Part shown: positions 1 through 25,614 of the stretch, in pieces
How positions within the stretch are numbered: the stretch's first letter is position 1
Layout: each line of letters starts with the position of its first letter
Assembly: GCA_963767115.1 (NCBI GenBank)
Contig: CAVYCR010000002.1
Coordinates: 1-51,898, forward strand
Direction: 5' to 3'
Origin: Candidatus Kaiserbacteria bacterium
GTDB lineage: Bacteria > Patescibacteriota > Minisyncoccia > Phycocordibacterales > UBA2100
Length of the DNA: 51,898 bases
Notes under the pieces: generated by a model
What the model was told of the DNA's origin: nothing
Databases searched by the model: none
What the model saw: the letters and a program-made list of their open reading frames with translations, nothing else
Position numbers and translations under genes: made by a program

Positions 1-9
1 CATACTTAG

Positions 10-390
10 CAAAGTTTTCCTAATGTCACTTTTACAATTGGTGGTCAAATATTTACATTCTCCGTGCTTCAATATTTTCGTATAATATCCATTGGTCAAG
101 ATTCTTACTGCTTCAGTGTATTTAACTTCTCACCATTGAATAACGTCTGGATTTTGGGTGATTATTTTCTCTCACGATTTTATTCCATTTATGATATTGG
201 TCAAAATCAAGTTGGCTTTGCTAAATCGATCTCATACAACTATGCACCCTACGTCGCTCCAGGGACATTTAAAAGTGGGGTCAGTCGAGCAGCAACAACA
301 TATCAAGAATTCAATTTCATTCTTCTAATTTGTTGCAGGTTGTGTTTGTATCACTCATTTAATCTCAATAAAGTTTCTATTCATGAATAA
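10..390 (+). CDS. Pepsin-family (A1) aspartic protease, C-terminal exon, 5' partial (eukaryotic)
   Basis: FPNVTFTIGG...WILGDYFLSRFYSIYDIGQNQVGFA is the typical A1 C-terminus, followed by a hydrophobic tail. TTAG at 6-9 may be a splice acceptor. Confidence 0.85.
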   Translation, partial: QSFPNVTFTIGGQIFTFSVLQYFRIISIGQDSYCFSVFNFSPLNNVWILGDYFLSRFYSIYDIGQNQVGFAKSISYNYAPYVAPGTFKSGVSRAATTYQEFNFILLICCRLCLYHSFNLNKVSIHE

Positions 391-586
391 TATGAATTGC
401 AGTATAAAAAGAAAAGCGAATTTTTACATCGACAAACAAAGATCAGAGCGAGAAAATTTTTAGGAACAGCCGATTAATTTTGCTTGTTTATGTATTCTAC
501 ACAGTTAATGGTAATAATTGAATCGCTGCTGATGGTGTTTTTAAGGTATTATTATACTCAATATCCGTGTTTATGGATGAATCTTG

Positions 587-1384
587 TTAGATATAATGTT
601 GAATTGATCTGTTCATTAATTCATTTGCTGTTCCTTGCAGATCTTTAACAATATATTTTTTAGTTTCTTGTCTCAACCATAATTTATTTGTGTGCCGTTT
701 TATTATCTTTCTTATGATTATTGCACTGAAGATAATTCCAAAAAATACTCCAAGAACAGCAAACATTAACACAATAAATATAAGCAGTACTCCACCACCT
801 TCGGCATCACAACAGTTATTTCCATTGGAATTATTACAATTTGAACCTAAACAACAACATGAATGACAAGTACAATCACATGGTTCATCAGTATTGCTTG
901 ACATCCACAAAAATACAGCAATGAAACCAAATAAACCTATGAGAGTAAAGAATAATATTACGCTGATTAGGTAATAAGTACCAAATGAACTCATAGAAGT
1001 TGGATATAAATTTTTAATACTATTATTTTCCTTATTTGCAGCTTGTAATAAAAATGTCATTCCAATAATAATTGCTTGAAGTAATAAAATAATGAATGTT
1101 ATATCACGAGTCACTAGCAAACGAAAAATCAGTAATCTTATTCTATCAGCATCTGGATCATCTATCATCGGTTCAATGATATATTCAAATTGACAAACAT
1201 CGCAAGATTTGAAAGATCGGCCAGTTTTATTTAATGATCGCCAATTATCTAAGCATTTTCTATGAACATGTGCTGATCCACCGTTGCATAAACAAGGACT
1301 AATTAAATCTTCTGGATTATCATCTTCGAGACATATTCTACAAGATTTTGTAGGATTTTGTGATGATGATAAATGTATGTTCAT
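587..1384 (-). CDS. RING-CH (MARCH-type) membrane E3 ubiquitin ligase (eukaryotic)
   Basis: CRIC...PCLCNGGSAHVHRKCLDNW...CDVC C4HC3 RINGv followed by three hydrophobic segments. Confidence 0.9.
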   Translation of the reverse strand: MNIHLSSSQNPTKSCRICLEDDNPEDLISPCLCNGGSAHVHRKCLDNWRSLNKTGRSFKSCDVCQFEYIIEPMIDDPDADRIRLLIFRLLVTRDITFIILLLQAIIIGMTFLLQAANKENNSIKNLYPTSMSSFGTYYLISVILFFTLIGLFGFIAVFLWMSSNTDEPCDCTCHSCCCLGSNCNNSNGNNCCDAEGGGVLLIFIVLMFAVLGVFFGIIFSAIIIRKIIKRHTNKLWLRQETKKYIVKDLQGTANELMNRSIQHYI

Positions 1385-1649
1385 TGCATCTTTTAATTCA
1401 AGTTATCTGAAATATAGACAAGAATATATATATTAGAAAAAAATCACCTATTACGGAAAAACATGAGTATTGAAGGGATACTTCTTACTTGCAACCATCG
1501 ATCATTTGTTTTTTCATACTCCTACCAAACATATATTTCGAGTACATGATCATGATGGTAATTCATGAGTAAAATATGAATCAAGTAAACAGAACTGATG
1601 AGAAATAAATTTAATCTATTGAACACAACATGATCTCGACAACCCATTC

Positions 1650-2365
1650 ATCGTCAGTTAGCTGAATATGCAAAAATCCTCCATGATGAAGATAGTAATA
1701 AAAACAAATCTTGACGGTATTTTTTTATCATTATACTCAAACGCTCCAGTCGAGGAAAGAGAGTACATAATCGCTTGATTTGTAAATTTAATGGACTGGC
1801 ACTTCGAACGTTTAAAATACGAATCTTCTCAATAACAGTATCGTGTGCTAAGTAAGCCTCATTTGATGTACACTGTAGTGGCTGATAATGTTTGATGGAA
1901 AATTAATAAGATGTGATATGAGTGATTCCCATCGTTGACCATCAATAAGATCCTTATTCCCTCGCATCTCGAGTTCAAGATGTTTTAAAGGAGGCATTTT
2001 ATACAAAAATTCTTCGATCAGTACCATGTTTGTATGTTCAGCTTAGCACAAAAAAGTAACAATAATCAATTGTTATATTACGTTATAAACTTACAATAAA
2101 TTGAGTTTATGTAAATTGAATAATCGTTTGAATGCATTTGCATCGATTAAACTAATGTTGAGCGAACGAAGATTGATGAATTGTTCGATATTGAAAAGAG
2201 AAAAGAAAAGTTCAGATCGATTAAGACTGCATTGAAATAATCATTCAGGTTAAAAAATGCATAAAAAATCTCATGTGCCCAAAAATAACCAAAAATATAA
2301 TGAAGCAATTCAACAGGCAGTACGTCTATTTGCGAATAATATATGGTGCGATGATGATGATTCAT
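1650..2365 (-). pseudogene. F-box-like/LRR-type gene, fragmented; downstream boundary approximate
   Basis: N-terminus IDVLPVELLHYIFGYF...FFNLNDYF. Downstream out-of-frame pieces IEEFLYKMPPLKHLELEMRGNKDLIDGQRWESLI and QIKRLCTLFPRLERLSI, with a GT-AG intron near 2043-2094. Resembles the expanded F-box families of bdelloid rotifers (inference). Confidence 0.5.
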
Positions 2366-2641
2366 TTACAACCGATTTATTTTGTAAAACAGCAAAAGAA
2401 AGTAATGGTTGAGTGTGACTGAATGCAATTTTACGCCTTTATATGTTATTTGTTCCTTTTCTTTATTTCTTTTTTCACATGAGTCACATGAAAACGGGCA
2501 CAGAAATGCGCCACGTCATCTACCGAGCTTTTTCAAAATGGGTAAAAGCAATGAATCATATTTACATCATTTCCTTTTTTTTAACGACTACTATCATGGT
2601 CATTAACCATGATGCATCCTTTTCTCTCATGTAGAGTGGGT

Positions 2642-2820
2642 GAACTTAATTCTGCTGGAAGAAACGTGACCTCACATTCTTTCCCCTCCTCTCACATGTT
2701 TGGTTGTTCGTCACTGATTCTGAGTAGGAGAGGGTGTGTTGTTCTTGTGTGTTTGAGTGGTGGTGTGTATACATAGAGAGGGGGAACCTAATTTTGCCGG
2801 AAACAACCTGACCTCACATT
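2642..2820. repeat. Imperfect 37-bp direct repeat (2642-2678 and 2784-2820)
   Basis: gaacttaattctgctggaagaaacgtgacctcacatt vs gaacctaattttgccggaaacaacctgacctcacatt, 31/37 identical. Confidence 0.7.
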
Positions 2821-3643
2821 ACTTGATCTATAACTCAGCCAATGCTTATCGCATAGAGCAAACATTTCTGCGTCGATTTATATGTACTTGACCAAAAATA
2901 ATCTGTTTGCATTTTTTTAGAAGCATACCAACAAGAGTACGGTCAAAAAAATTTTTTTTTTTCTCGTGTTCCTAAATATGCCATTGAGGGTATTTTTTCT
3001 TTCTGGAATAAAGCGGATCTTATTAACTACTCTTACTGCAAATCGATTTCAATCCAATAAGGAGACATTATGAGTGTCAGCGAGCTTTCAAAAATAAATA
3101 GAAATATTTTTGATTAGAGTGATCGAGTCTTCTTACCGTTGCTTATTCTTTTACTTCCTCACCATAAAAAAATTAAATCAAAATGTGTTTCTTTGGTTAC
3201 ATACATCTTCTGAGAGACTAAAGAGATACTGACTACATGATTTTAGATTGTACCTCAAATATATGGTCATGTTTGATGTGTTAATAGCAAACAACGTAGT
3301 TGTGAAGAAATTATAGCACATATAGCTATCGTAAATGATTATATACCAATATCTACAAAAAGTCGATATTTAATTTGAACTTATCTTAAAGTATTTGTAC
3401 GCTTACAGTATACATCGTTTGTATGTAATTATCGATGTCATACTCGTAGTTTTGCGTTCTCCTTCCTCGTAATGATGACGATGTATACGTCACTCTGCAT
3501 AATATTTACATGTACATACATTCGTACCTTTATAGAAGGAGAAAAAAAATGCCTTGTCATCGTTATGGCGGAAAATAAAACATATAAATATTAGAATTTA
3601 AAAGCTTCTATTTATATTCGTATGTAATTAACTATTAATAGAA

Positions 3644-4556
3644 ATGTCTACAAATACTTACAAAAATGTTTTATTAGTTGGTGGTACTGGTGAATTGGGA
3701 AATATATTCTTCCAGCTCTTCTTGCTGATTCGTCCTTCAATGTTACTGTTCTTTCTCGTGTTAATTCAAATGCAACATTTCCATCAAATGTTAAAGTAAT
3801 CAAAGTCGATTATTCAGATAACAATGCAATTACGAAAGCACTTGTTGGTCAAGATGTGGTTATTTCTGCCATTGGTGGTGAAGGTATTAGTCGATGATTT
3901 TGGTATAACTTTATTGAAGCTGCTATTGAAGCAGGTGTAAAATGGTTTATTCCATCTGAATTTGGTGGTGATATTGATCATCCAATTTGTGCAACTATTC
4001 CACTTTATGTCTCCAAAGTTAGATGTTCTAAGTTATTAAAAAAAAATCAATCACGTATTAGCACATACATTTATTACAACTGGTGGTTTTCTTGATTGGG
4101 GTTTTGATAATGGTTTTCTTGGCTTTGATATTCCTAATCGTACAGTTACACTTTATGATGAAGGAAAACGCGTATATCAGGTACAACTCTTCCAAAATTG
4201 GTAAAGCTGTTGTCGCTATTATTCATCATCCAGAATTAACCTTAAACAAACGAATTTATATTGCAGATACAACATTTACACAACAAGAAGCTTTAGCTCT
4301 CTTTGAAAAATACACGAATACCAAATGGACAGTGAAACATGTCTCCGCGAAGGACAAACAAAAAGAAGCAACTGAAAAATTAGCGCAAGGAAATATTGGA
4401 GAAGCTCTGGTTGATTATGTAAAATTTTTATCACACGGTGGTTCACATGTATTTATGCTGGAAGGTAGAACAATCAACAAAGACTTAGGATTATCAACGA
4501 CATCGTTAGACCAAATTATTAAAGAAGCAGTAAAACGAACAAATCCTGCTCAATAA
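3644..4556 (+). CDS. NmrA-like / isoflavone-reductase family NAD(P)-dependent reductase, intronless, several 1-nt frameshifts
   Basis: MSTNTYKNVLLVGGTGELG (Rossmann GxxGxxG), then VTVLSR, KVDY, GQDVVISAIG, AGVKWFIPSEFG, TGGFLDW spread over shifting frames. Confidence 0.85.
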
Positions 4557-4897
4557 TAATCTTTTTTCCCACAAAAAGTCGTTCTCATCTTTTTATGTAC
4601 ATTATTTAATCGACAAATAAAAAATTATTGTAAGTTAAATAAATTATTCGATGATGCTCTAAGTTATAAGATATTTTTGAATTTATTCATAATCAATTTT
4701 CATTGAAAAGTGTATATAAGGAAAAAAAAGAAATATCTGTGTGCTCTGCATCTTTTAATGCATATGCGTTATCATCATGTGCTTGCTAAAGAAAGTCGAG
4801 TCTTCTTTTCAAAAACTAAAAGAGTAATATAAAAAGATAAAACAGATTCTTTATCACAACAGTTTTCTTTTAATAATATTAGATAAAAATAAAAAAG

Positions 4898-5143
4898 ATG
4901 TGTTGCAGAAGAATTATTTTTGGTACTTTAATTATTCTTACAATTGGTGTCTTTGTAGCACAAATCGCTTTTGGTGTCCATTACCTTCACAATCCACCTG
5001 CATGTGATCGAGTGAAATTTCTTACGATAGCAATTTTGGTTGGCGGTTGCAGTGGTGCGGCATCAATTGTATCTCTTGTATGTTACTGCTATAATTGTGG
5101 ATGTGGGTTGATGTCATCAAAAACTGATCAATCAAGTGCTTGA
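4898..5143 (+). CDS. Small protein with two hydrophobic segments (eukaryotic, unknown function)
   Basis: 81-aa ORF with two TM-like stretches and a Cys-rich C-terminus; A-rich context before the ATG. Confidence 0.5.
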   Translation: MCCRRIIFGTLIILTIGVFVAQIAFGVHYLHNPPACDRVKFLTIAILVGGCSGAASIVSLVCYCYNCGCGLMSSKTDQSSA

Positions 5144-5662
5144 ATATGCAAATCTAGTTCAAAACTAAGCTATTAAAATAACTGTTTTTTTAAAGGAAGT
5201 ACTGGTCCATTTTGTGACTTTTTTAAGTGAATCAACTATATAAATATGTTCTTCATTATTTTTTATGATTTCTAAGATGATATTCGGACTTTTTAAATAT
5301 TTTACTCATGCGCAAATTTCAAGATGTCCATATCATAAGACTTTGTTTTAATATTAAGGTCGTTATTTCGTCACGAAAATAGAAAAAGCAAAAAAATCAA
5401 GACGAATACTGTCGTAATACATTCACGTGTTAATGTTCTGTTTTTGTTTTGATGATACTATCATAGAGTGTCGTATAGCCGATATAATGTCCTTCATCTC
5501 AAGAATGCCTGTGTGCGACGGATATACTTCAGTGATTTTCAACGAGAAAAATCGCTTTTTTTCACAATTTTTTTGTACATCATTCCTACGTGCAGGAGAG
5601 AGAAATTACGCCTATAAATATTCGCGACAAACGTCGAGCTTGCTACAGATCAAATTACGATC

Positions 5663-5812
5663 ATGGCTAACACTTACTTTATGCTACGTCTGACTTTTCT
5701 TTTGCTTTTGTTAGTTACAATCGCCATAGCATGGAGTGCCGAAAGTTCTGAAGAGACCGACGATCATTTCGAAAAGCGCAAATTGATGAACATTCTTTTA
5801 CAAAAGAGGTAG
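5663..5812 (+). CDS. Small secreted prepropeptide (neuropeptide-precursor-like), possibly with a further exon
   Basis: MANTYFMLRLTFLLLLLVTIAIAWSA signal peptide, acidic spacer ESSEETDDHFE, then KR-KLMNILLQ-KR. TATAAA at 5613-5618; possible donor AG|GTAG at 5808/5809. Too short for the supplied ORF track. Confidence 0.6.
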   Translation: MANTYFMLRLTFLLLLLVTIAIAWSAESSEETDDHFEKRKLMNILLQKR

Positions 5813-6240
5813 AATTGTTCATTTCCTGCGTGATCTTCGATTATAGCATGAATTAGGATAATCGTGTACGAATTGATTAAATACCAGAAAAGAGCTAAAG
5901 AGTACAAGTTCAAGCTAGAATTCTTCATTTGTCATGTGATCTTCGGTCATAGTCAGAACTTGATACACCTATTATATCAGGTTACAACAGTTGATGAGAG
6001 CTAAATTGTCTAAAACTGATTATTTTCCATGAGATCATTGATTATGATACTAGTCGGCGTATCTATTTTTGAAATGATAACATAGTTGAAGAGACTCCAC
6101 TGCAAAAATATTCATTTGCTACATCAACTTCGATTATAGTACAAAACTAGTGTATCTGTGCTAGAAAATACATAACATTCGACGAGAGCTAGGGTGTGAA
6201 ATTGTTCATTTATCGTGTAATGTTTCGACTATAGTATCAA
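5813..6240. repeat. Degenerate tandem repeat, period about 95-105 bp, about 5 units
   Basis: aattgttcattt...tgatcttcgattatag-like blocks start near 5813, 5919, 6017, 6107 and 6200. Confidence 0.6.
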
Positions 6241-6822
6241 ATCAATATGTTTGTTTCGAAAAAAGTGATAGGAGAAGAGAATCCATTTACAAATAGTGGA
6301 TTTTCTTTAGATTGCCGCTGAATAGGTATTTTTTCTTAATACAAACTATTTCAACAGCGAACACTACCTTATGGTATCATCTTGAACTACATGTTTTTTT
6401 TATTAAGAAAATTTCTTTTTTTTTTATTAACTTTGTATAGTTTAGTTTTACTAATAAATAAAGCTTTGATTTGTGTTGATAGAAATCATGAATTTGGTTG
6501 AGCTGAAGATATCAATAAGGACTATCGTCTCTTATTTTAATCGATTGACTCATTAAATTGAAACAAAACAAATGAAGCGTGACGGTTAACTTTTTTTTAT
6601 CTTCTTACCTTTTTCTCACGACAGATGGCAGTTGGTTTTTATTTCAAGATTAAATTAATAAATAAGAAAATATAGATTATCTTGTATTTTAAATAATTAT
6701 AATTTATCAAAAATGAAATAAAAAATCCGATTGGTTTAATTATCAATATCCAATCAAATTTTTTCGTTAGATAAGATTCCTTTTACCCAAAAGAGATATA
6801 TTGTTATTTGTTAGAAAACAAT

Positions 6823-7359
6823 ATGTTTTCTCGTTTAACTCTATTTCGCCAACAATTAACAACAATAAATTCATACCGGAATTTATCATTTAAACAAATA
6901 AATGAATTAAAACCGATTCTTAGTCGAAATCTTGCTTGGTTCTCTGGAAAATCAACCAAACAAACTTCGGGTTTGTGAGAATTGTTTTTAAATTTAACTC
7001 CTTAAGAATTTCTTTATATAAAATTGTACATATCTTATGATATGATACATGGAGTTAAAGAACAGAAGGTCATCGAGTGCATTATCGCGAAGATATTGAA
7101 TGAATACGTTAAATTTGTATTGTTTTTAATAGGTGGAAGATTAAAACGACGTTTAGAAATATCATTCTAATTAGTGTCATTGGTTTTGGTACAATCTCTA
7201 TTTATGGTAAATATCGTCGATATCGATGGTTCCATGAGATGGATGATTCTGATAAGACTATTGGTACTAAACCACGTATTATCGTTCTTGGAACAGGTAA
7301 AGAATAGATTAATTATTTATATTTATTTGAATAATATTAAATAGGTTGGGGTGCTGTGC
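6823..7359 (+). CDS. Mitochondrial type II (alternative) NADH dehydrogenase, first three exons, truncated at the junction
   Basis: Arg/Ser/Leu-rich presequence MFSRLTLFRQQ...; GT-AG introns 6971-7132 and 7297-7344. Spliced product reads KPRIIVLGTG-WGAV, the first Rossmann motif of the Nde1/Ndi1 family. One probable 1-nt indel near 7152. Confidence 0.85.
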
Positions 7360-8674
<1,315 letters not shown>

Positions 8675-10839: not shown

Positions 10840-11262
10840 TTATTTGAGCGTAACCTTGCCACCCGCTTCCTCGATCTTCTTCTTCCAAGCTTCGGCGTCC
10901 TCCTTCTTGACGGCCGGCTTGAGCATAGCCGGCGCACTCTCGACGAGTGCCTTCGACTCAGCAAGTCCGAGCGCGAGGATTTCCTTGACCACCTTGATCA
11001 CGGCGATCTTCTGCTCGCCTACTGCAGTAAGCTCGACATCGAACTCTGCCTTGTCTTCGGCGCCGCCTGCTGCACCTCCCGCTGCAGGGCCCGCGACGGC
11101 AACTGCCGCAGCCGAGACGCCCCACTTCTTCTCGAGCGTCTTCACGAGCTCGTTCGCCTCGAGGATGGTGAGCTTCTCCATCTCTTCGACGATCGACTTG
11201 AACTTCGCCGGTACTTCGACCACCTCGGTCGCCTGCGTTTCTACTGCTGTATCTTCTGCCAT
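10840..11262 (-). CDS. rplL: 50S ribosomal protein bL12 (L7/L12)
   Basis: [23 protein letters not shown]...[25 protein letters not shown]...GGKVTLK. Confidence 0.98.
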
Positions 11263-11287
11263 AGTGATTGTAATGAATGATTATTAA

Positions 11288-11788
11288 TTACTGCATCTTT
11301 TGTGCATGCTGATCCAATACGACTGCGAGGCGCGCGAGCGGCGAATTGATGAGATTTACCAGCTTGCCACGCAAAACAGTGAGAGACGGGATCTCTGCGA
11401 TCTCGTTCATCGAAGCCGCGTCCATCAGCTTGCCTTCGAAAAGGCCGCCGACGATCGTGAGCTTGTTGGCCCCCATGTCTTTGCCAAACTTGAAGATGCG
11501 GCTCGCCGGCAATGTCGGGTCTTCCGACCCTGCGTTGTAAGCGATCGCGAGCTCCCCTTCCATCGGCACACTGCTGTGGTCGTGCCCGAGATTGTTGAGC
11601 GCGCGGCCGACCAAGGTCTTCTTGGCAACGGTATATCCGAGGCCGTCGGCGCGGAAGGCGCGACGCATCTTGGTCTCGTCAGCGACCGAGACGCCCTTGA
11701 AGTGGACGAACACGGTCGAGGAAGCGCCCTTCAAAGCATCCTCGATCTTCGCGACGATCTCTTTCTTTTGTTCTTTTGTCTTTGCCAT
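11288..11788 (-). CDS. rplJ: 50S ribosomal protein uL10
   Basis: MAKTKEQKKEIV...VAKKTLVGRAL...IPSLTVLRGKLVNLINSP; directly upstream of rplL. Confidence 0.97.
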   Translation of the reverse strand: MAKTKEQKKEIVAKIEDALKGASSTVFVHFKGVSVADETKMRRAFRADGLGYTVAKKTLVGRALNNLGHDHSSVPMEGELAIAYNAGSEDPTLPASRIFKFGKDMGANKLTIVGGLFEGKLMDAASMNEIAEIPSLTVLRGKLVNLINSPLARLAVVLDQHAQKMQ

Positions 11789-11848
11789 TGTGGTGAAAAA
11801 CAACGTCTCCTAAAACAAGGCGTCAGCCTAGGGCTGACAAGAGTGTTC

Positions 11849-11936
11849 GACCTCAGCAAGCTCGTCCCGCGAAGTCAGCTTTGGGCTGACGGAGTGGGAT
11901 CTGATTGAAACCTTTCGGTACCCGCTTTCTCTGGCC
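11849..11936 (-). promoter_or_regulatory. L10 leader (rplJL autoregulatory RNA)
   Basis: GGCC-AGAGA-AAGCGGGU...UUCAAU...GCUUGCU-GA-GGUC kink-turn-like stem between the promoter and rplJ. Confidence 0.75.
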
Positions 11937-11947
11937 TTGTGGGGTGC

Positions 11948-12009
11948 ATAGTAGCCTGCATGCATTGAGACGTCAACTTTTTGACATACCATCACTACGG
12001 CAGTAGATT
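11948..12009. promoter_or_regulatory. Back-to-back sigma70 promoters (rplJL on minus; CtrA-like gene on plus)
   Basis: Minus: TTGACG (11976-11971)-17-TACTAT (11953-11948). Plus: TTGACA (11981-11986)-17-TAGATT (12004-12009). Confidence 0.8.
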
Positions 12010-12071
12010 GGCCTGAGTGATGTTCATTAGATTCAATCATCGGACATCGGACCCAAACACGGAGGGATCCC

Positions 12072-12437
12072 ATGGATGCTTTGTTGGACAGAGACCCGGC
12101 TATAGTAGAGCCAGTCATCGTCACCGGCAACCTCGTCGTCGACATGACCCACAGGATCGTCAAGATCGACGATGTACGCGTGCATCTTACCCCGACAGAA
12201 TACAAGATACTTAAGCTTTTCAGCTTGCGTAAGGGCATAACACTCTCCAAGAGCGTCATCTTCGCACATCTATACGATGAGGACGTCAAACGAGACCCGA
12301 AGATTATCGGTGTGTTCATCTGCAAGCTACGCAAGAAACTCACCACGGCCTCCAGGGGGACAAACTATATCGATACAATATTTCTTCGTGGCTATATCTT
12401 GCGCGACCCACCAGCACAAGAAGCCACCTACGGATGA
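12072..12437 (+). CDS. Stand-alone OmpR/PhoB-type winged-helix domain, CtrA-like, no receiver domain
   Basis: VHLTPTEYKILKLFSLRKGITLSK...HLY...KIIGVFICKLRKKL...RGYILRDP follows the CtrA C-terminal signature; GGAGG at 12061-12065. Confidence 0.88.
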   Translation: MDALLDRDPAIVEPVIVTGNLVVDMTHRIVKIDDVRVHLTPTEYKILKLFSLRKGITLSKSVIFAHLYDEDVKRDPKIIGVFICKLRKKLTTASRGTNYIDTIFLRGYILRDPPAQEATYG

Positions 12438-12453
12438 AACCGACCGCCTCCCG

Positions 12454-12487
12454 AGGCGGCGCGAACCTCGCGCCGCCTTTCTTATTT
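12454..12487 (+). terminator. Terminator after the CtrA-like gene
   Basis: AGGCGGCGCGA-ACC-TCGCGCCGCCT then TTCTTATTT. Confidence 0.8.
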
Positions 12488-12577
12488 GAAACGGGATCCA
12501 AGTTTGACATACTGCACATACGTGTGTTATTATTGCTTCGGCAAATACCTGCTGAACCAAACCCTAGGGGGAATCCA

Positions 12578-12955
12578 ATGCAACAATGTATCGGCGGCGG
12601 CGAAGAATTCGTTGTAACACCTCCTTTCGGATCGCCCGAGGAATTGGCAATGCTGGAGGATGTGTTCCGCGTCCAAACTGAGACACTCGCCCAAGACGAC
12701 CGGATAATGTTGACCGGCTGTATGCTGGCAACCCTCAACGCCTCACCGACGAAAGTCGCCCAAAACAAGCTTAAGGGAGCGCTTTTGGAGAAGCTTCTCG
12801 TCGCAGTGCATGAGTATAACCCTGGGCTTTACGAGTCCTTCGTATTGTTCCTTCGCGACAAGACGGCATTCAACGAAACGCTGGGCCAAGAGGCTCACTG
12901 GATAGATGCGACGGCAGCGGAAATCGGTCTGATCATTTTGGGTTTGCGTCCATGA
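12578..12955 (+). CDS. Hypothetical protein (orphan, monocistronic)
   Basis: Own promoter TTGACA 12504-12509 / TGnTATTAT 12525-12533, purine-rich RBS, terminator hairpin 12962-12986. Start moved from 12434, which lies before the upstream terminator. Confidence 0.65.
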   Translation: MQQCIGGGEEFVVTPPFGSPEELAMLEDVFRVQTETLAQDDRIMLTGCMLATLNASPTKVAQNKLKGALLEKLLVAVHEYNPGLYESFVLFLRDKTAFNETLGQEAHWIDATAAEIGLIILGLRP

Positions 12956-13011
12956 AACAGGAGCGCCGAGACGATGTCTCGGCGCTTTTACTTTGCACTA
13001 TTTTTATAGTT

Positions 13012-13170
13012 CTACTTGAGCATCTGGGCGAGGGCCGCAGCGGCGGCCTGCTGCTTGGTCTCGCCGAGGCCGAAGTGCGTGACGGCAAGCGTGAGCCCGA
13101 AGCTCACCCCGATAAAGGTCATAAACCCCGCGGCAAATTTCAAAAACGATCCCGTCGGCGTCGGCTGCAT
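13012..13170 (-). CDS. Small single-TM protein
   Basis: MQPTPTGSFLKFAAGFMTFIGVSFGLTLAV...; TACAAT 6 nt before the ATG. Confidence 0.6.
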   Translation of the reverse strand: MQPTPTGSFLKFAAGFMTFIGVSFGLTLAVTHFGLGETKQQAAAAALAQMLK

Positions 13171-13208
13171 GTCACTATTGTATACCCTCTCCAATAATGC
13201 CGCGATGG

Positions 13209-13640
13209 CTATGTGTTTTTCTTACCCATGCGCCAAATCCGCCAATATTTCCAGATTATGACTATTGCGCTCACCAGATCAATGAGCCATACCATGCGTT
13301 CGGTGACTTGCGTACGGTCCAATAAATAGAAGGTGATTCCTTGATATTCGTATGGTGTATTAATAATTATAAATAGCGCAATGATCGCAAGGGGCAAAAT
13401 CACTTTCCACCATGCATTGAAAACTTCTCTTCTGACAAAAATAACTATCAGACATAGGGGTAGCAACCACGGGAGTCCCCAATATAAAGGTTCACCAACT
13501 CCGATATATGTAGAATAATCGAGACAATAGACTTGGTTGCCGCAGATACCGATAATCCACGAATGAAAAATTAGATACTGCGCTGCCATTCCTACAATGA
13601 CCAGAATTAGGAGAATTATTCCAAATAATCGATGATTCAT
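13209..13640 (-). CDS. Four-TM membrane protein translationally coupled to the upstream lipase (candidate immunity protein)
   Basis: Four hydrophobic segments; ATGA overlap with the lipase stop; low GC. Confidence 0.75.
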   Translation of the reverse strand: MNHRLFGIILLILVIVGMAAQYLIFHSWIIGICGNQVYCLDYSTYIGVGEPLYWGLPWLLPLCLIVIFVRREVFNAWWKVILPLAIIALFIIINTPYEYQGITFYLLDRTQVTERMVWLIDLVSAIVIIWKYWRIWRMGKKNT

Positions 13641-16255
13641 ATTTTTGTATTTATCAACACCTTCAATTCCTCAATCATATCAAGTAATTGACTCGCTTCC
13701 GCAGAGGTGATCTTTTCAACCTGAGGAGGTTTCTTGGGTAGTGGCTTGGTATTTTCATTCTCGATATAGGCCTCGATTCGATTAAGTTTTCGTATAATCT
13801 TATCTTTGAGCCTATCATTCGAATTATCCGCACTGTCGTCATCATCGGTGTCCCATTTCGTATCCTTAGTGATCAAATATCCAACATTGACAAACTTGGC
13901 TTCTAGTCGCAATTTGACGAGCGAACCCATATCCATTCCAAGAATCGTTGTGCCGATCAGCTTCGTATATGAGAGCGGGTCGGTCGTCTGCGTAGAAGAG
14001 GCGATTACTATATCGACCTTACCATCGCCGTCTTCGTCTACTGCAAGCGCTGTCGAAGCTAGATTCGATGCATTGACTTGTATGGTAGCAGTCGACGATG
14101 CAGTCACTGGCACACCAGCAAAACTAATTGTGCTCTGTGCGACGCCGCTAACGACCGGCGTCACCTCGAAGGTAAAAGTGCCCGTCCCCGTGCCATGCAA
14201 AACGACTTTGTAATTATTACTATCGTCGGGAAGTCCTATATACTGTCCTTCGCCATATTGACGATAGTAACTATTAGGAATCTGCTCTTGTACATATAGA
14301 TCATCAGACTGCGGGTTGGGATTCGGGATCATACCCGTATGATTTCCAAGACTGTCATATGCGTCTAAGGTGACTGGCGAGAGCACGCGGAGGCGTAAGG
14401 TCTTACTTAACAATGTTGGAGTTGGTTCAGTGGTAGTTACGTACTGGGGTAATACACCAACCGAGCTAGACGATAAAATGCTTGCAAACAAGGTCTGAAA
14501 AACGGACGTCTCTGTAACATCTTTATGGCCGAGATTGGTCTTAAAGAATTCATTATATTTCGGTAAATTTATGTAATAGCTTTGCCAACTAGTTGTAGCT
14601 ATTTGACTTGGTACCACCACGGTATCGTCCCCATCTTCAGTGATATTCATTGCATGGCGCGTAGTTGTTGAGATCGAGCAGCCAACAGCATTACAAGTCG
14701 ATATATTTTCTTCTTGGTACGTAACTCCTGACGGCGTATCGAGACCCCAGCCCGCTATCTGGATTACTTGCACACCCACTGGAGGTGTCCATGAATCGAG
14801 ATCGGAATGGAGGGCAGTCGCACTTGATAATAATGCGGACGAAAGCAAATCCGGCGTCTCGATATCGCCCGCAGCGGGCTTGGTGCGGCCTGAGGTGAGG
14901 AACTTGCCTAGATCATTCGCATTCGTGATGAGGCTCGGCACATTGCCCGCGTCTTTGAGATCGGGATCGAGGGTGAGATCGACCACCGGCGATGCGACAC
15001 GCACGAAATAATCGCTTGAAGGGAGGAGATCGTAGGCATCGGGCATATTTTCTGCTAAGCCCCGCATGGTCTGCTGCGATACGACGAACCCAGGCAACGG
15101 ATCGTAGTCGCCATGGAGCATCGCTGCGATCGCCATCGGCGTGCCGTCCTGCGGTACGTCCACAAGTATTACTTTATCGACAAGGTTGGCCTTGCCCTCC
15201 TGCTGCAGCTTGATCATCAATGCCTTCGCGACAAGGCCGCCGTTGGAGTGCGCCACTATCGTGACCTTCCCTGTTTTCGAGGTCGACGCCAGCGCGATCA
15301 ATGCTTGGTCGATGAAATGAGTGCCGTCGTCATACGGCGTGCCGTCGTTGACGACATCTTCGGGCGATTGCCGCCAATCGTACGGGAACGCAAGATAGTC
15401 GTAGATCGTGCTGCTTGCCTTGAGACCCGCAAGCTGCGCCAGGAATGATTGATAGATGCTTGTTTCGTCAAAAGGTACGCCCACCTGATCAATCGTTGCA
15501 CCGGTCTTCGTGTATACAGCGTTAATACTGGTACCGTTCGGATTCAGATACATTGCCTTTGCGTCTTGTTGCAAACTGCTGATCCACGGCTCCCAGAGCT
15601 GCAGTTCGATACCGACTGTCTTTTCATAGAGGCGACTGCCTTCAAGACCGGGAATGAAAAGGACGTTCGAATCGCAACCACTAACACAGGACGTAGGCGC
15701 GGACGGCACAGCACAACCGTTTTCGCATATCTCGAGAAAGGGTGTTGTGCCCGAGGCGCCCACCCAATGATCTGCGGTATACCCTGAATAGCTTGGGTCC
15801 AAGAAGGCCCACATTTCATTTCCCATATGCACTGTCTCGCCGGGGTTTGTCGGTATCGAATATTCGGTGAGGCTCGTCGTCGCCGTCACAGCGAGCGGAT
15901 AATAATTACCGGGTGAAGCAACTAAATGCGCCGTAGTAGTCCCGGTACCATAAAAAGGATCTCCACCAGAAGTGGCTTGCAAAATGACATCAAGGACATT
16001 GCCTGTGCCTCCGTTCCATTGAGCCAGGAGGTGCAGAGTAGTTGAGACATCGGTTGTAAAATCCTGACCGCTCCACGTACCGAGGAAGACGCTTGGATTG
16101 TCATTGAGACCGAACCATGAGTGCGTCGATGTAGGCGTGTACACTTGTAAACTGTCCGGACCGGATGAGGCGGATTGCCAGACTACTTCTGCGTTGGAAA
16201 TGTGTGGCGACATAAGTATAAACGTGAGGACTGATGCGACGAGTAAAATACGCAT
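13637..16255 (-). CDS. Large secreted LCAT/PGAP1-like alpha/beta hydrolase (phospholipase/acyltransferase)
   Basis: Signal peptide MRILLVASVLTFILMSPHISNA; VLFIPGLEGS, FPYDWR, IVAHSNGGL nucleophile elbow, DGDDTV, Ca-binding-like DEDGDGKVD. The ORF is open up to 16351. Confidence 0.88.
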   Translation of the reverse strand: MRILLVASVLTFILMSPHISNAEVVWQSASSGPDSLQVYTPTSTHSWFGLNDNPSVFLGTWSGQDFTTDVSTTLHLLAQWNGGTGNVLDVILQATSGGDPFYGTGTTTAHLVASPGNYYPLAVTATTSLTEYSIPTNPGETVHMGNEMWAFLDPSYSGYTADHWVGASGTTPFLEICENGCAVPSAPTSCVSGCDSNVLFIPGLEGSRLYEKTVGIELQLWEPWISSLQQDAKAMYLNPNGTSINAVYTKTGATIDQVGVPFDETSIYQSFLAQLAGLKASSTIYDYLAFPYDWRQSPEDVVNDGTPYDDGTHFIDQALIALASTSKTGKVTIVAHSNGGLVAKALMIKLQQEGKANLVDKVILVDVPQDGTPMAIAAMLHGDYDPLPGFVVSQQTMRGLAENMPDAYDLLPSSDYFVRVASPVVDLTLDPDLKDAGNVPSLITNANDLGKFLTSGRTKPAAGDIETPDLLSSALLSSATALHSDLDSWTPPVGVQVIQIAGWGLDTPSGVTYQEENISTCNAVGCSISTTTRHAMNITEDGDDTVVVPSQIATTSWQSYYINLPKYNEFFKTNLGHKDVTETSVFQTLFASILSSSSVGVLPQYVTTTEPTPTLLSKTLRLRVLSPVTLDAYDSLGNHTGMIPNPNPQSDDLYVQEQIPNSYYRQYGEGQYIGLPDDSNNYKVVLHGTGTGTFTFEVTPVVSGVAQSTISFAGVPVTASSTATIQVNASNLASTALAVDEDGDGKVDIVIASSTQTTDPLSYTKLIGTTILGMDMGSLVKLRLEAKFVNVGYLITKDTKWDTDDDDSADNSNDRLKDKIIRKLNRIEAYIENENTKPLPKKPPQVEKITSAEASQLLDMIEELKVLINTKI

Positions 16256-16366
16256 CGCATCAGCCTTACGCGCATATGCGCTAGACCCCTTAGCACGTCC
16301 GCAAGACCCCTTTGCGTCCTTCATATGCACGATCAGTATGACACTGTACATGAAGTCTTCATTAAG

Positions 16367-16375
16367 TTATCCACA
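16367..16375 (+). promoter_or_regulatory. Consensus DnaA box
   Basis: TTATCCACA in a divergent intergenic region. Confidence 0.45.
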
Positions 16376-16384
16376 TATTCATTA

Positions 16385-16403
16385 CATAGGTCTGACCTCT
16401 GCA
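16385..16403. repeat. RAYT-associated palindrome, one mismatch in the left arm
   Basis: CATAGGTC-T-GACCTCTGCA. Confidence 0.75.
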
Positions 16404-16453
16404 AACAGGATCAAAACTTGGCTCTTTTGTTGAGTTTTTGGTATGCTGGAGCG

Positions 16454-17164
16454 ATGAGTACACATGATCGCACTTCAATTATCGTCGGGATTATCATCGT
16501 AATCGTTCTCGTCCTCGGCTTTCTGGCTTGGCAGGAACGTGCAGGCACGCAAGCCTCTATCCCCTCTACTGCTACGACTACCAGCGCTACCTCGAGCTCG
16601 GGCGGCAACGTAATCAGTATTTCGCCCAGCGGAAAGGTCACCGGGCCGGCCGGTTATACCATCACAGAGATTCCTGTCGGTTCGGACGCTCCGCAGGCGC
16701 CCAACTACAAAGCACCCCTCGTCTTCGCGAGCACTGTGCCGGCTGACCAACAGGCACAACTGCAGCAAGCATTTGCTGCCGCGCAGGCGACGATCACGAA
16801 GAGCCCGCAGGATTTCAATTCATGGATAGAGCTAGGGCTTGTACGCAAAGAAGCCGGCGACTACACCGGTGCGGCTGCCGACTGGCAATACATGTCAGCG
16901 CTCTACCCTACCAACGTGGTCTCCAACGCAAACCTCGGCGACCTGTATACCAACTACCTGCCGAATTACCCGAAAGCAGCAGCAGCCTTCAAGGCGCAGA
17001 TCGCCAACGATCCCACTGACGAATACATCTATATCGACCTCTATGATCTCTACACTACCCACTACCCACAGAGCAGTTCGACGATCGTAGCGCTCCTCAA
17101 GCAGGGGCTTGCGGCGGTCCCTGGCGACGCACAGCTCTCGGCCCTGCTCGCGAAATATCAGTAG
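16454..17164 (+). CDS. Membrane-anchored TPR-repeat protein
   Basis: N-terminal TM, Ser/Thr linker, TPR-like SWIELGLVRKEAGDYTGAAADW and NLGDLYTNY; TATGCT 6 nt before the ATG. Confidence 0.8.
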   Translation: MSTHDRTSIIVGIIIVIVLVLGFLAWQERAGTQASIPSTATTTSATSSSGGNVISISPSGKVTGPAGYTITEIPVGSDAPQAPNYKAPLVFASTVPADQQAQLQQAFAAAQATITKSPQDFNSWIELGLVRKEAGDYTGAAADWQYMSALYPTNVVSNANLGDLYTNYLPNYPKAAAAFKAQIANDPTDEYIYIDLYDLYTTHYPQSSSTIVALLKQGLAAVPGDAQLSALLAKYQ

Positions 17165-17293: not shown

Positions 17294-17977
17294 ATGCATC
17301 GGAGGGGTCAGATGCGTGCTCTCGATGGGCACCACTATCATATTTTCAACCGTGGCGCACATGAGTACCCTGTTTTTGCAAGTGACGACGATTATAAAAG
17401 GTTCCAGATTCTTCTATACCTGCTCAACACGCACTCCCCTGTCACGGTACGCAACGTGCTTGCGCGATACCAAGAGACAAAAGTGGAGCGGGTGTTTATA
17501 GACGAGTACTGCGACCAGTCACTTGTCGATATACTCGCCTACACGCTCCTACCCAACCATTTCCATTTGGTCTTGCGCGAAAAGGCTGAGGACGGCGTAG
17601 CTCTTTTCATGCAGAAGGTGTGCACTGCCTATTCTATGTATTTCAATACAATGCATGACCATCGCGGCACACTCTGGGAGGGACGGTATAAGTCGCGGCC
17701 GATCGCGAACGAATCGTATCTCAAATACATCTTTGCTTATGTCCACCTCAATGTACTCGATCTCAAAGAGAATCGACGGAAAGACTTTGGCATAAAAGAT
17801 ACGAGAGCTTCACGCGCATTTGTCGCTTCGTATCCGTATTCGAGCTACTACGACTATTACGTGGGAGGCCGGCCGGAGAGGGTCATCTTGTGCGCAACAA
17901 ATCTGCGCGATTTTCTGCGGCAAAACGATTTTGAGGAACTGGCCGCTTGGCAATCAGCCGGCCGCGCAGAGGTCTGA
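17294..17977 (+). mobile_element. REP-associated tyrosine transposase (RAYT, Y1 HUH family)
   Basis: YHIFNRG, YTLLPNHFHLVL (HUH), YFN...GTLWEGRYKS, YVHLN (catalytic Tyr), YPYSSY; palindromes on both sides; no tnpB. Confidence 0.92.
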
Positions 17978-18064: not shown

Positions 18065-19096
18065 TTATTGGCCGCTTTGGACAGCTTGATAGGCAGCAGC
18101 AGAGACTTGTGCAACGATACTCTCGAGCGTAGCAATGGGTGCGGAGCCGCGTGTCATGATGCACATCACGTAAGGATCCTTGCCGTAGACGATGCCGCAA
18201 TCATGCAGCTCGTGCTCGGTCGTGACGTTGCCGGGCGCGATGCCGACAAGTCCGAGCTTGTGTGAGACCACCGTCGAACTCGAGACACCCGCGACTATCC
18301 CCTGTGTAAAACTCGACTGACTCATAAGTTGGAGTGCCTTTTCGGAATCATCACGGGAGAGGTACGTGGCATTGTAGAGCACGCGGAAGAGCGTCGAGAC
18401 CTGGTGCGCGGTGATGAAATCGAGATTGGAAAGGCTCGGGTCGTCGTTGACGGGTATGTTGAGGTCGCCATACACATCGTTGAGCGTGTTCTTGTCGATG
18501 TTCTCGTCGAGAAGTTCAGTCGCGTTGTTGTCGGAATACTTGATCATATATCCGATGAGCTGATCGACCGTGTAGGTATGTCCTTGCTCGATCGTATCTG
18601 CTGGCGCGATGTCTTGCATGTCGTTGAGATCTTGACTACCGGCTGGGAAGAGTACCTCTTTGTTCAAAACATCCGGATTACTTTCCGACTCTAGATAATA
18701 CGCCATCATGATCGGGATCTTACCGAGACTCGATGGAAAGAATGTGTCATTGCCATAGACCGATGCCCACTGCCCACTTGAGAGGTCAGTGAAATAGACA
18801 GATGCCTTGCTGATATCACCCGCATCTTTGTGGGAATCAATGATCGACTGCATCGCTCCTTCGAGCGATTTGTCTTCTAGTACCGGACTTGAATTGTTGA
18901 TGTTGCACACGAGCAATGGATCGATGAATTGATAGCCACTGAGGCGAAGTGAATGGCTCTGCACACCGAGATCTGCAGCGCCCTTGAGATGCCACCCTGC
19001 CCCGAATGCTCCCAGACCTATAGCAACTGCACAGGCGAGGATGTAAATCCAAAAGACGACATTGCGTCTCTTAGCTCCGGTATCTTTATTAACCAT
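18065..19096 (-). CDS. Class A beta-lactamase-like serine hydrolase, membrane-anchored (start uncertain, 19096-19135)
   Basis: SSLGK (SxxK), YSDN, HKLG, HDCGIVY. Confidence 0.88.
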   Translation of the reverse strand: MVNKDTGAKRRNVVFWIYILACAVAIGLGAFGAGWHLKGAADLGVQSHSLRLSGYQFIDPLLVCNINNSSPVLEDKSLEGAMQSIIDSHKDAGDISKASVYFTDLSSGQWASVYGNDTFFPSSLGKIPIMMAYYLESESNPDVLNKEVLFPAGSQDLNDMQDIAPADTIEQGHTYTVDQLIGYMIKYSDNNATELLDENIDKNTLNDVYGDLNIPVNDDPSLSNLDFITAHQVSTLFRVLYNATYLSRDDSEKALQLMSQSSFTQGIVAGVSSSTVVSHKLGLVGIAPGNVTTEHELHDCGIVYGKDPYVMCIMTRGSAPIATLESIVAQVSAAAYQAVQSGQ

Positions 19097-19131
19097 GGTT
19101 TTCATATAATAGCCTACTGTACACTGATGTT

Positions 19132-20175
19132 TCAAGACGGGTATCGATCCTCGATATCGCGATATATGATTTGTGAGATACCCGCAATGGTCTCTTCAAG
19201 ATACGGGATGTTCTCTCCCTTGGTCATGATACACAGTACATAGGGATGATTGGGGTAATAAATAATGCCGCAATTCTGTAGTTCGGCACCGATTTGTTGC
19301 CCTTGCGCGTCAGGGATACGCGCGTCGCCGAACTTCTGTGCGACGAGTACACCGTTGGGTACGCCTGCCTCGATCCCCTGCGTGAAGTCGCTCTCGGTGA
19401 GGAGCTTGAGCAGGTGTTCCGAATAATCGCGATCAAGATACGTGGAGTTGTATAAGACGCGCAGGAAGAGTGAGTAGGACCCGACTGTGGTATCGTCCGG
19501 ATTTGGATTATTCTTAATTCCGAAATTATTGAATAGAGTGGTCACTACATCGAGTTGTTTGATGGCGGCCAAATGATTGGCAAGTAACTGTTCCGCATTG
19601 TTATCGGAATATTTGATCATGTGCTCGATGAGTTCTTCGATCGTATACGTACTACCCTCCTTAAGCTGGACCGATGACTCTACCTGTTCATTGGCATCAA
19701 GATCGCCAATTCCCATATAGGTAACCGTCTGAGAGAGTACTGACGGATCGCTTTCAGCAAGATCGTAATAGGCCATCGCGAGTGGGATCTTGGTGAGACT
19801 GGCCGGATCGTAAAGTGTCGAAGAATTAACATTGAAACCGTCGGTATTATCGATATCGCGAAAATTGACGGAGGCAATCGTCAGACCGTTCTTTTCTTGC
19901 GTGGAAATATAGGAATTTATCTGATCATAGAGCGCTGAATACTCGGGCGCAGGATTCGCTCCACTCATACTCACGCTGATGAGCGGGTCGGTGAGCTCAT
20001 AACCCGTACTTGAAGCTGATTCAAGGTCACTCTCGCGGACGACTCTATAATCAGTAGATTCACTTGCATCAAACCACTGGATGAAAAGTACCGCTGCCAC
20101 AGCACCGATGATAAGACCAGGAATTCCGTAAGTAATATATGGCGGAGCTTTGTATCGATATGTGCGTAGGCGCAT
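19132..20175 (-). CDS. Class A beta-lactamase-like serine hydrolase, tandem paralog
   Basis: ASLTK (SxxK), YSDN, QKFG, NCGIIY; N-terminal TM. Confidence 0.88.
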   Translation of the reverse strand: MRLRTYRYKAPPYITYGIPGLIIGAVAAVLFIQWFDASESTDYRVVRESDLESASSTGYELTDPLISVSMSGANPAPEYSALYDQINSYISTQEKNGLTIASVNFRDIDNTDGFNVNSSTLYDPASLTKIPLAMAYYDLAESDPSVLSQTVTYMGIGDLDANEQVESSVQLKEGSTYTIEELIEHMIKYSDNNAEQLLANHLAAIKQLDVVTTLFNNFGIKNNPNPDDTTVGSYSLFLRVLYNSTYLDRDYSEHLLKLLTESDFTQGIEAGVPNGVLVAQKFGDARIPDAQGQQIGAELQNCGIIYYPNHPYVLCIMTKGENIPYLEETIAGISQIIYRDIEDRYPS

Positions 20176-20212
20176 GAGAAACCCGTGGAAAAAGTATACG
20201 CAATTTATCCAA

Positions 20213-20252
20213 CAAAGCAAAACCCCCTCCTTTTGGGAGGGGGTTTGCTTTG
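20213..20252 (-). terminator. Terminator after the S-layer-like gene
   Basis: caaagcaaaaccccctcc-tttt-gggagggggtttgctttg. Confidence 0.8.
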
Positions 20253-25411: not shown

Positions 25412-25542
25412 GATTATATTTGTATATGTCCTTTACACAGGAGATCTTATGGACGGATTATATAGAGGACGTACATGAGCTGCAATGTCTTTATATGTCT
25501 CTGACACTGACTCCGTGTGGCGTCAATCACAGATCTGTCTTT
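25382..25542. repeat. Array of TGTCYYT-like heptamers over the HTH gene start and the divergent promoter region
   Basis: Copies at 25382, 25393, 25405, 25427, 25486, 25496 and 25536. Confidence 0.65.
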
Positions 25543-25614
25543 TATTGCCACAAGGTGCTTCCGAGGCCCTTTTTAAGCCCTGCTTTGGGAGCTTACGTGG
25601 TATTATTGTCCGGT

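Follow-up and report, generated by a model that had tools for sequence, protein, structure and literature searches.

A contig of 51,898 nucleotides from a Candidatus Kaiserbacteria genome, analysed here at its full length (the window), encodes a 121-amino-acid (121-aa) protein whose single recognisable domain is a DNA-binding domain of the CtrA type. CtrA is an essential cell-cycle response regulator of Alphaproteobacteria, and together with SciP it is regarded as a hallmark of that group. The gene lacks a receiver domain, lies in sequence of the bacterial Candidate Phyla Radiation (CPR), and belongs to a set of CtrA and SciP relatives that, among the genomes searched, is concentrated in one CPR genus. 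We conclude that this is a real regulator gene, foreign in ancestry and so far without any sign of action on a host. Our preferred interpretation, which we consider probable, is that the protein serves as a stand-alone, endogenous transcription factor of CtrA lineage in a Kaiserbacteria-like bacterium, acting independently of phosphorylation. An earlier note on this DNA had recognised a receiver-less CtrA-like domain and had proposed that the protein might act on the cell cycle of an alphaproteobacterial host.

Several independent comparisons identify the domain. Pfam places Trans_reg_C (PF00486) at residues 36-110 (59.7 bits with a cut-off of 26.2; E 3e-16; positions 3-77 of the 77-position profile), and no other family, including Response_reg, appears at E up to 1. 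The OmpR family includes receiver-less regulators that carry other sensor parts instead, of the ToxR/CadC and SARP types; by Pfam and sequence reading the 121-aa protein has neither a membrane anchor with a periplasmic sensor nor a BTAD/NB-ARC extension. Among NCBIfam models the CtrA model NF045991 scores highest (110.3 bits, E 1.2e-31, over model positions 114-224 only), 56 bits ahead of RpaB (54.3 bits) and further ahead of PhoB (45.5 bits) and PhoP (45.2 bits). All four motifs that had been named as CtrA hallmarks (SLRKGITLSK, HLY, KIIGVFICKLRKKL and RGYILRDP) are present in the open reading frame (ORF). A quick-search tree of DNA-binding domains (156 rows, 114 columns) places the 121-aa protein, together with the other CtrA-like proteins of the genus, on the CtrA side of a branch that separates them from generic regulators with a Shimodaira-Hasegawa-like approximate likelihood ratio (SH-aLRT) support of 98. 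The outgroup is narrow, consisting of 10 generic OmpR-type regulators from the same genus, and other OmpR subfamilies are covered by the NCBIfam comparison instead. Within the CtrA group this tree has no resolution, and the branch of the 121-aa protein is long (1.18). By these sequence comparisons the domain is, as the earlier note had supposed, CtrA-derived and not a generic OmpR/PhoB domain.

The AlphaFold2 model (mean predicted local distance difference test score 86.2) predicts a complete beta4-alpha3-hairpin topology, with a beta-sheet at 15-37, helices at 41-52, 60-67 and 78-93 (the recognition helix) and a hairpin at 100-110; residues 1-14 and 111-121 are of low confidence. The best Foldseek matches in the PDB are the DNA-binding domains of PhoP, PrrA, ArlR and PhoB (E 2e-8 to 5e-8, TM-score 0.82-0.86 normalised to the free domains), the PhoB domain (PDB 1gxp) giving 0.86 normalised to the target. 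Divergence is spread very unevenly over this fold. Averaged over 20 named CtrAs of Alphaproteobacteria and over 10 generic regulators from the genus, respectively, the recognition helix IIGVFICKLRKKLTTA is 82% versus 38% identical, the wing (100-110) 55% versus 39%, the sheet (15-37) 41% versus 17%, and the loop preceding the helix (68-77) 20% versus 10%. The contrast between a helix at 82% and a preceding loop at 20% fits selection on DNA contact. In the OmpR/PhoB family this loop contacts RNA polymerase, and its divergence would fit a protein adapted to another polymerase or one that only represses.

Despite this affinity, the gene should not be filed as CtrA, since it has no receiver and its 110.3 bits fall short of the 350-bit equivalog cut-off. 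Among the 120 listed of 2169 matches in a library of 5.8 billion clustered proteins, the best are 47-58% identical, and most are alphaproteobacterial CtrAs or pieces of them. In a representative library of 1.84 billion proteins, three proteins reach E 1e-30, each in two or three stretches (two look like tandem-domain proteins and one like an internal repeat), and none of the 150 matches listed exceeds 58% identity. Set beside CtrA itself, the protein thus shares a DNA-binding domain of the same lineage (50-58% identity among the matches listed), and differs in its missing phospho-acceptor, its diverged wing and pre-helix loop, and its CPR genome.

Stand-alone domains of this type occur elsewhere. 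Six of them, from a viral contig (L272, 133 aa), metagenomic proteins (P0124, 164 aa; P0125, 145 aa; P0010, 116 aa) and two genomes of the genus (G078, 119 aa; G056, 150 aa), likewise have a short unrelated N-terminus; at 35-54% identity to the 121-aa protein they are non-orthologous to it. The JGI annotation labels P0124 'CtrA', and short 'CtrA' proteins are already so labelled there.

The gene reads as a whole gene and not as a broken fragment. No in-frame ATG, GTG or TTG lies between the upstream stop and the ATG at 12072, and this sole in-frame start codon, taken with the promoter-like site, ribosome-binding site and terminator listed in Table 1, leads us to read 11981-12487 as one small self-contained transcription unit. 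Promoter-like sites are dense in this part of the window, with nine in 11700-13300 versus 0.9 in shuffled sequence. The start of rplJ lies 268 bp upstream on the opposite strand, and a tblastn search with seven full-length CtrAs recovered no receiver remnant in any frame of 11200-12500; all matches outside the DNA-binding domain had E > 0.2. In alignments, the first 14 residues pair with the stretch AIVRRSKGHA-QS of full-length CPR CtrAs, directly before the DNA-binding domain. We take this stretch to be the end of CtrA receiver helix 5 plus the linker, and the pairing places the truncation at the domain boundary. The earlier description of the gene as complete and receiver-less is borne out by the intact frame, the expression signals and the position of the truncation. 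GC content is 50% overall and 63% at third codon positions (GC3), and GC3 of the other window genes is 53-75%; composition so like that of the CPR genome implies long residence.

Table 1. Features around the gene for the 121-aa protein in the window, and remodelled CtrA-type forms in other genomes of the genus
Feature	Location	Strand	Size	Evidence or context
CDS of receiver-less CtrA-type winged-helix DNA-binding protein	12072..12437	+	121 aa	ORF read, Pfam, NCBIfam, AlphaFold2, Foldseek
Sigma-70-like promoter TTGACA-17-TAGATT	11981..12009	+		10/12 positions match consensus
Ribosome-binding site GGAGGG, ATG 5 nt downstream	12061..12066	+		Sequence reading
Intrinsic terminator, strong (narrower limits 12453-12479): 12-bp stem (9 G-C pairs), 3-nt loop, T-rich tail	12453..12489	+		
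rplL and rplJ, left border of insert	10840..11803	-		Conserved in genus
Orphan ORF, separately promoted; site TTGACA-18-TATTAT at 12504-12533, probable start ATG 12578	12504..12955	+	125 aa	11/12 promoter positions
LCAT-like lipase, right border of insert	13637-16351	-		Pfam scan
TPR protein, right border of insert	16325-17164	+		Pfam scan
Receiver-less form	G078:C100		119 aa	CPR-context contig, CtrA best NCBIfam model
Receiver-less form, SciP adjoining	G056		150 aa	CPR-context contig, CtrA best NCBIfam model
Tandem form, two CtrA-type domains	G081 (L144:1521-2252)		243 aa	CPR-context contig, CtrA best NCBIfam model
Eroded form	G064		229 aa	246 bits, CPR-context contig, CtrA best NCBIfam model
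SciP domain fused to CtrA-type domain	G080 (L142:8563-9321)		252 aa	Both hidden Markov models match
SciP domain fused to CtrA-type domain	G126 (L143:8705-9349)		214 aa	Both hidden Markov models match

The window is the whole of contig C2 in an assembly of 1.03 Mb and 12 contigs (71.5% complete, 0.55% contamination); genomes of the same genus and order span 0.5-1.6 Mb, and all genomes compared here are metagenome bins. The single-stranded DNA-binding protein gene (SSB) of the window matches 80 loci at 50-77% identity, 74 of which carry CPR names (Kaiserbacteria, Paceibacterota, Parcubacteria, Nomurabacteria, Minisyncoccia and, as an automatic label, 'Saccharibacteria'), none the name of another phylum and six no phylum name. 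Beyond about 9.2 kb the contig is authentic CPR sequence of Kaiserbacteria-like type. Its left end is suspect and lies 3 kb from the gene, with genus-syntenic genes in between. GC is 27-34% in bases 1-7000 versus 52-57% beyond 9 kb, and fragments with eukaryote-type domains occur there (Asp protease at 64-390, RING-variant at 587-1384, NmrA at 4083-4556). A 23S rRNA gene on the reverse strand (7256-8640), which breaks off at model position 2044 of 2925, borders the low-GC end. We take this end to be a mis-join or a foreign insert. Elsewhere in the window FtsK is split over two ORFs (25420-27120 and 27295-27870) and RecA (ORF 29382-29900) begins at profile position 72; these interruptions could be assembly frameshifts, inteins or real breaks. 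The window also carries an IS200-like Y1 transposase (17294-17977) and, at 18065-20220, two adjacent genes of beta-lactamase fold (class A-like, Beta-lactamase2).

By comparison with related genomes, the gene sits in a small insert specific to the source lineage. The block immediately to its left, comprising genes for a mechanosensitive (MS) channel and a helix-turn-helix (HTH) protein followed by rplL and rplJ, recurs across the genus, and none of 29 rplJ loci of relatives (1.5 kb kept on each side) has a CtrA-like gene beside rplJ. In four of the 29 a homologue of the lipase (L158) or of the TPR protein (L155, L156, L172) lies within about 1.5 kb of rplJ. The insert is about 1.4-1.8 kb in size and holds two orphan genes. 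The second of these, the 125-aa ORF next to our gene, has no Pfam or PHROG family and a single weak match (E 5.5e-4) in 115 other genomes of the genus; together with the 29 rplJ loci, this orphan status argues for a lineage-specific insert. A Fic-like assignment for this ORF was tried and rejected: the ESM Atlas score of 0.91 with 141 shared features is below the usual family level, and the Fic motif was not seen.

CtrA-type genes of quite different construction occur across the genus. The source genome itself has a second one, on contig C3 (120000-124000; loci L002 and L150), whose 311-aa product scores 131 bits against the CtrA hidden Markov model (HMM) and has no match to a Pfam receiver. 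Its neighbours are a SciP-like gene (DUF1153; 76 bits, cut-off 100), a ParB-like gene and an excisionase-like HTH_17 gene, and this cassette sits some 6 kb beyond fmt, among ORFs mostly without a Pfam family (about C3:115500-127000). An intact CtrA/SciP locus in genome G001 is syntenic with C3, with rseP, frr, holB, mreB, def and fmt followed by the cassette. CtrA matches above the curated cut-off occur in 4 of 116 genomes of the genus. One of these four, on a 1-kb contig (G078:C62, locus L108), is 95% identical to Bradyrhizobium CtrA; we regard it as contamination and dropped it from the counts of CPR CtrAs. Intact CtrA is encoded on CPR-context contigs of 19-21 kb in G082 (384 bits), G057 (367 bits) and G001 (357 bits), where 8 of 17, 9 of 16 and 8 of 15 ORFs, respectively, match the source genome at E 1e-10 or better, with identities of 25% to 91%. 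SciP above its cut-off adjoins the intact ctrA in G001 and G082.

Around these intact copies the genus holds the receiver-less, tandem, eroded and SciP-fused forms of Table 1, every one of them on a CPR-context contig and closest to CtrA among the NCBIfam models. A further protein, in G060 (L023:1150-1794), matches the SciP HMM only; its tail looks winged-helix-like by eye and has no HMM match. The tandem-domain proteins could substitute for receiver-driven dimerisation, and they and the SciP-fused relatives suggest that the genus may have exchanged receiver-driven dimerisation and control for other means. Distribution is strongly skewed to the genus. SciP was found in 12 of its 116 genomes (5 above cut-off) versus none of 400 other Patescibacteria from 319 other genera, and the 121-aa protein, used as a query at E 1e-11, matched 9 of the 116 versus one borderline case in the 400. 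Both sets are sampled draws, and absences apply to the genomes searched. A receiver-less CtrA in Patescibacteria, as first described from the window, is therefore a recurring form in this genus, with that one borderline match in the others, and the source gene is not unique.

Three other groups of relatives were observed. The proteins P0121, which is metagenomic, and P0122 have two or three tandem CtrA-type DNA-binding domains, P0122 also with a receiver, and in a metagenomic cluster (P0127) the N-terminus appears SciP-like by eye, one member being named a DUF1153 protein of a Gemmataceae metagenome-assembled genome. An island of roughly 6.5 kb in G082 (contig C34, L138:2699-9190), flanked by CPR core genes, holds a large serine integrase (phrog_95, E 2e-52), an adhesin/TPR protein, a DUF3761 protein, SciP, the intact CtrA and a 209-aa winged-helix protein that is not CtrA-specific. 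Among viruses, 59 IMG/VR contigs (loci L264-L322) encode CtrA relatives; the best 20 of the 59 loci comprise 17 full-length response regulators (locus GC 44-71%), one receiver-less protein and two that are cut. The receiver-less one is the L272 protein mentioned above, encoded on a 165-kb contig, with CtrA as its best NCBIfam model. A connection of viral contig L282 with the island in G082 was considered and rejected, the ctrA gene alone being common to both.

Where did these genes come from? Named Hyphomicrobiales CtrAs share 74-80% identity with the intact CPR CtrAs, which falls within the range of 74.4 ± 11% that a passage of PMC9437464 gives for alphaproteobacterial CtrA homologues among themselves. 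Identity between the SciP of G001 and that of Hyphomicrobiales is 67-72%, and the genes follow the same order. These identities and the shared gene order make an alphaproteobacterial origin the best explanation on sequence comparison, in agreement with the source first proposed. Of the 80 alphaproteobacterial loci fetched, 31 have SciP no more than 2.5 kb upstream of ctrA, so that the two could have been transferred jointly. In a full-length tree (70 rows, 233 columns, quick search) the CtrAs of G001, G057 and G082 lie inside a cluster of Hyphomicrobiales and viral CtrAs, separated from generic regulators by a branch with SH-aLRT 100. CPR rows are scattered in both trees, which rest on short alignments, and the starred branches force at most two origins in the domain tree or one in the full-length tree. 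Within the genus the cassettes occupy different chromosomal sites, one of them adjoining a serine integrase. Identity of 50% to alphaproteobacterial CtrA and of 32-45% to the CPR paralogues marks the 121-aa protein as an old or fast-evolving offshoot.

From these observations we propose the following course. A ctrA gene, probably with sciP, would have been transferred from Hyphomicrobiales-like Alphaproteobacteria into the CPR genus, the direction and number of such transfers being part of the proposal. One copy in the source lineage would then have lost its receiver exactly at the boundary between receiver and linker and come under local expression signals, and its sequence would have diverged to about 50% identity with the DNA-reading helix preserved. 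The resulting protein, with no phospho-acceptor and no ChpT relay found, may regulate transcription in the CPR cell independently of phosphorylation. ChpT (PF10090) was above cut-off in none of five genomes tested, among them the 71.5% complete source genome, with a positive Caulobacter control; no search was aimed at CckA. Helix 78-93 probably reads CtrA-like half-sites of the TTAA type, and control would be exerted through the protein's own transcription instead of a kinase. There may be interplay with the pseudo-receiver CtrA paralogue and the SciP-like protein of contig C3. The biochemistry of the family allows such a mode of action: the isolated PhoB effector domain, with its receiver removed, binds DNA and activates without phosphorylation. 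Those isolated PhoB-type domains are laboratory truncations, whereas the 121-aa protein is encoded by a natural gene with its own expression signals.

A number of observations weigh against this interpretation. The CtrA box is not enriched: TTAA-N7-TTAA occurs 7 times in the 1.03-Mb assembly versus 4-10 times for spacings of 3-12, and neither a full nor a half CtrA box was found near the gene or in 11 CPR CtrA/SciP loci (about 165 kb). The DNA target of the protein is a prediction, and binding could be changed or weakened by the substitutions in the wing (IDTIFLRGYIL versus IETVWGRGYVL in CtrA) and by a D-to-G replacement at residue 80. Among the matches listed the protein stands alone, so selection on orthologues is not measurable. 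The assembly is incomplete, with split genes and a suspect contig end. Public sequencing runs matching the stretch are three soil-metagenome runs of one study, and none is recorded as RNA. Two of the three contain small shares of the stretch (0.18 and 0.09), and contigs from these soil runs match 12517-13119 at 100% identity. Inside the gene they match 31 bases only (12315-12345, with 3 mismatches, at depths of 80 and 355), which we take to be the conserved ctrA helix of other organisms and hence no independent cover of the gene. A complex prediction for the 121-aa protein and the SciP-like protein (alignments A3 and A2) scored 0.00 in both cases and is counted neither way.

Several of these observations would suit a gene that does nothing at all. 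The 121-aa ORF could be the surviving half of a decayed foreign ctrA, functionless and either open by chance or recently silenced, and such a relic is possible since there are no orthologues on which selection could be tested. That no orthologue was found, that the binding motif is not enriched, that the neighbouring 125-aa ORF is an orphan as well, and that the genus displays many stages of erosion, including the pseudo-receiver copy in the same genome, would all be expected of decay. Yet the frame and a complete predicted fold survive about 50% divergence, this divergence largely spares the recognition helix, a good promoter-like site, ribosome-binding site and terminator are in place, and the host-like composition implies that the gene has resided in the genome for a long time; we judge a neutral relic unlikely. 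A functional alternative would make the protein an antagonist or partner in a CtrA-derived module of the CPR cell, in which the free domain competes with the 311-aa paralogue for sites, occupies them for it, or is restrained by the SciP-like protein. The same genome encodes both of these proteins, the fusions of SciP with a CtrA-type domain in G080 and G126 argue that the two parts work together, and the tandem-domain proteins (G081, and P0121 among metagenomic proteins) suggest two domains on one site. Against such a module, the 121-aa and 311-aa proteins are only about 40% identical in the domain, their genes are unlinked, on contigs C2 and C3, and binding to shared sites is a prediction, so that we give it a slim chance. 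We put the chance slightly lower still that the gene is part of a phage or integrative element and regulates this element rather than the cell. CtrA-like proteins on 59 IMG/VR contigs, one of them receiver-less, the match of the 121-aa protein to the phage response-regulator family phrog_731 (65.9 bits, E 6e-18), the large serine integrase adjoining the G082 cassette and the excisionase-like and ParB-like genes adjoining that of C3 are all in keeping with mobility. The surroundings of the 121-aa gene itself are not: the tested neighbours have no PHROG match, the window ORFs scanned with Pfam include no integrase, the window has no tRNA gene, and the insert is small, with its two orphan genes.

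Is the protein, then, aimed at a host? As a mimic it would be delivered into an alphaproteobacterial cell, bind the CtrA boxes there constitutively and disturb replication or division. The recognition helix is almost that of CtrA, the donor looks like a member of the Hyphomicrobiales, which could be hosts, and there is a precedent in phage phiCbK, which carries its own GcrA; a passage of PMC7987155 contains the authors' speculation that this stalls the cell cycle. The parallel with phiCbK extends to the concept of a parasite carrying a cell-cycle regulator of its host; the phage gene is expressed within the host cell, whereas no route of entry is visible for the 121-aa protein. On sequence reading, with no predictor applied, its N-terminus has no hydrophobic signal and no other delivery feature is visible, just as the earlier note had observed, and the neighbouring genes include no secretion genes. 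GC and GC3 are CPR-like, TTAA-N7-TTAA is not enriched, and the presence of a pseudo-receiver paralogue and a SciP-like gene in the same genome points to endogenous use. The role as a host cell-cycle effector therefore finds no backing in the present data other than the CtrA-like helix and the probable donor lineage, and of all the explanations weighed here we hold it to be the most improbable. Hardly more credible is a broader version, in which CtrA and SciP were taken from Hyphomicrobiales cells that host the genus and the receiver-less copy constitutively binds host CtrA boxes, after delivery or on DNA taken up, tying epibiont life to the host cell cycle. Were such a host-acting binder of CtrA boxes real, the gene would reveal which lineage hosts an uncultured CPR group, and a bacterial cell-cycle master regulator would for the first time have a cellular mimic.

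CtrA, SciP and the OmpR/PhoB effector fold are all well known. In titles, abstracts and passages of the literature we found nothing on CtrA or SciP in CPR bacteria, or on a natural receiver-less CtrA. SciP (DUF1153, NF051866) is an inhibitor of CtrA; the resemblance to SciP systems lies in the SciP-like gene of the source genome and in the two fusions, and the differences are that no SciP gene adjoins the 121-aa gene and that the SciP-like protein of the source genome scores below the family cut-off. The CPR chromosomes of this one genus hold bona fide CtrA copies along with others remodelled to graded extents, in which the receiver is lost or degenerate, the DNA-binding domain is in tandem, or the protein is fused to its own inhibitor. 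They offer a natural experiment in the rewiring of a phosphorylation-gated regulator after transfer to a minimal genome without its relay. The SciP-domain fusions are an independent hint at the way in which SciP and the CtrA DNA-binding domain cooperate, and the high identity of the intact copies to Hyphomicrobiales CtrA gives a starting point, open to testing, in the search for the partners of Parcubacteria from soil and groundwater.

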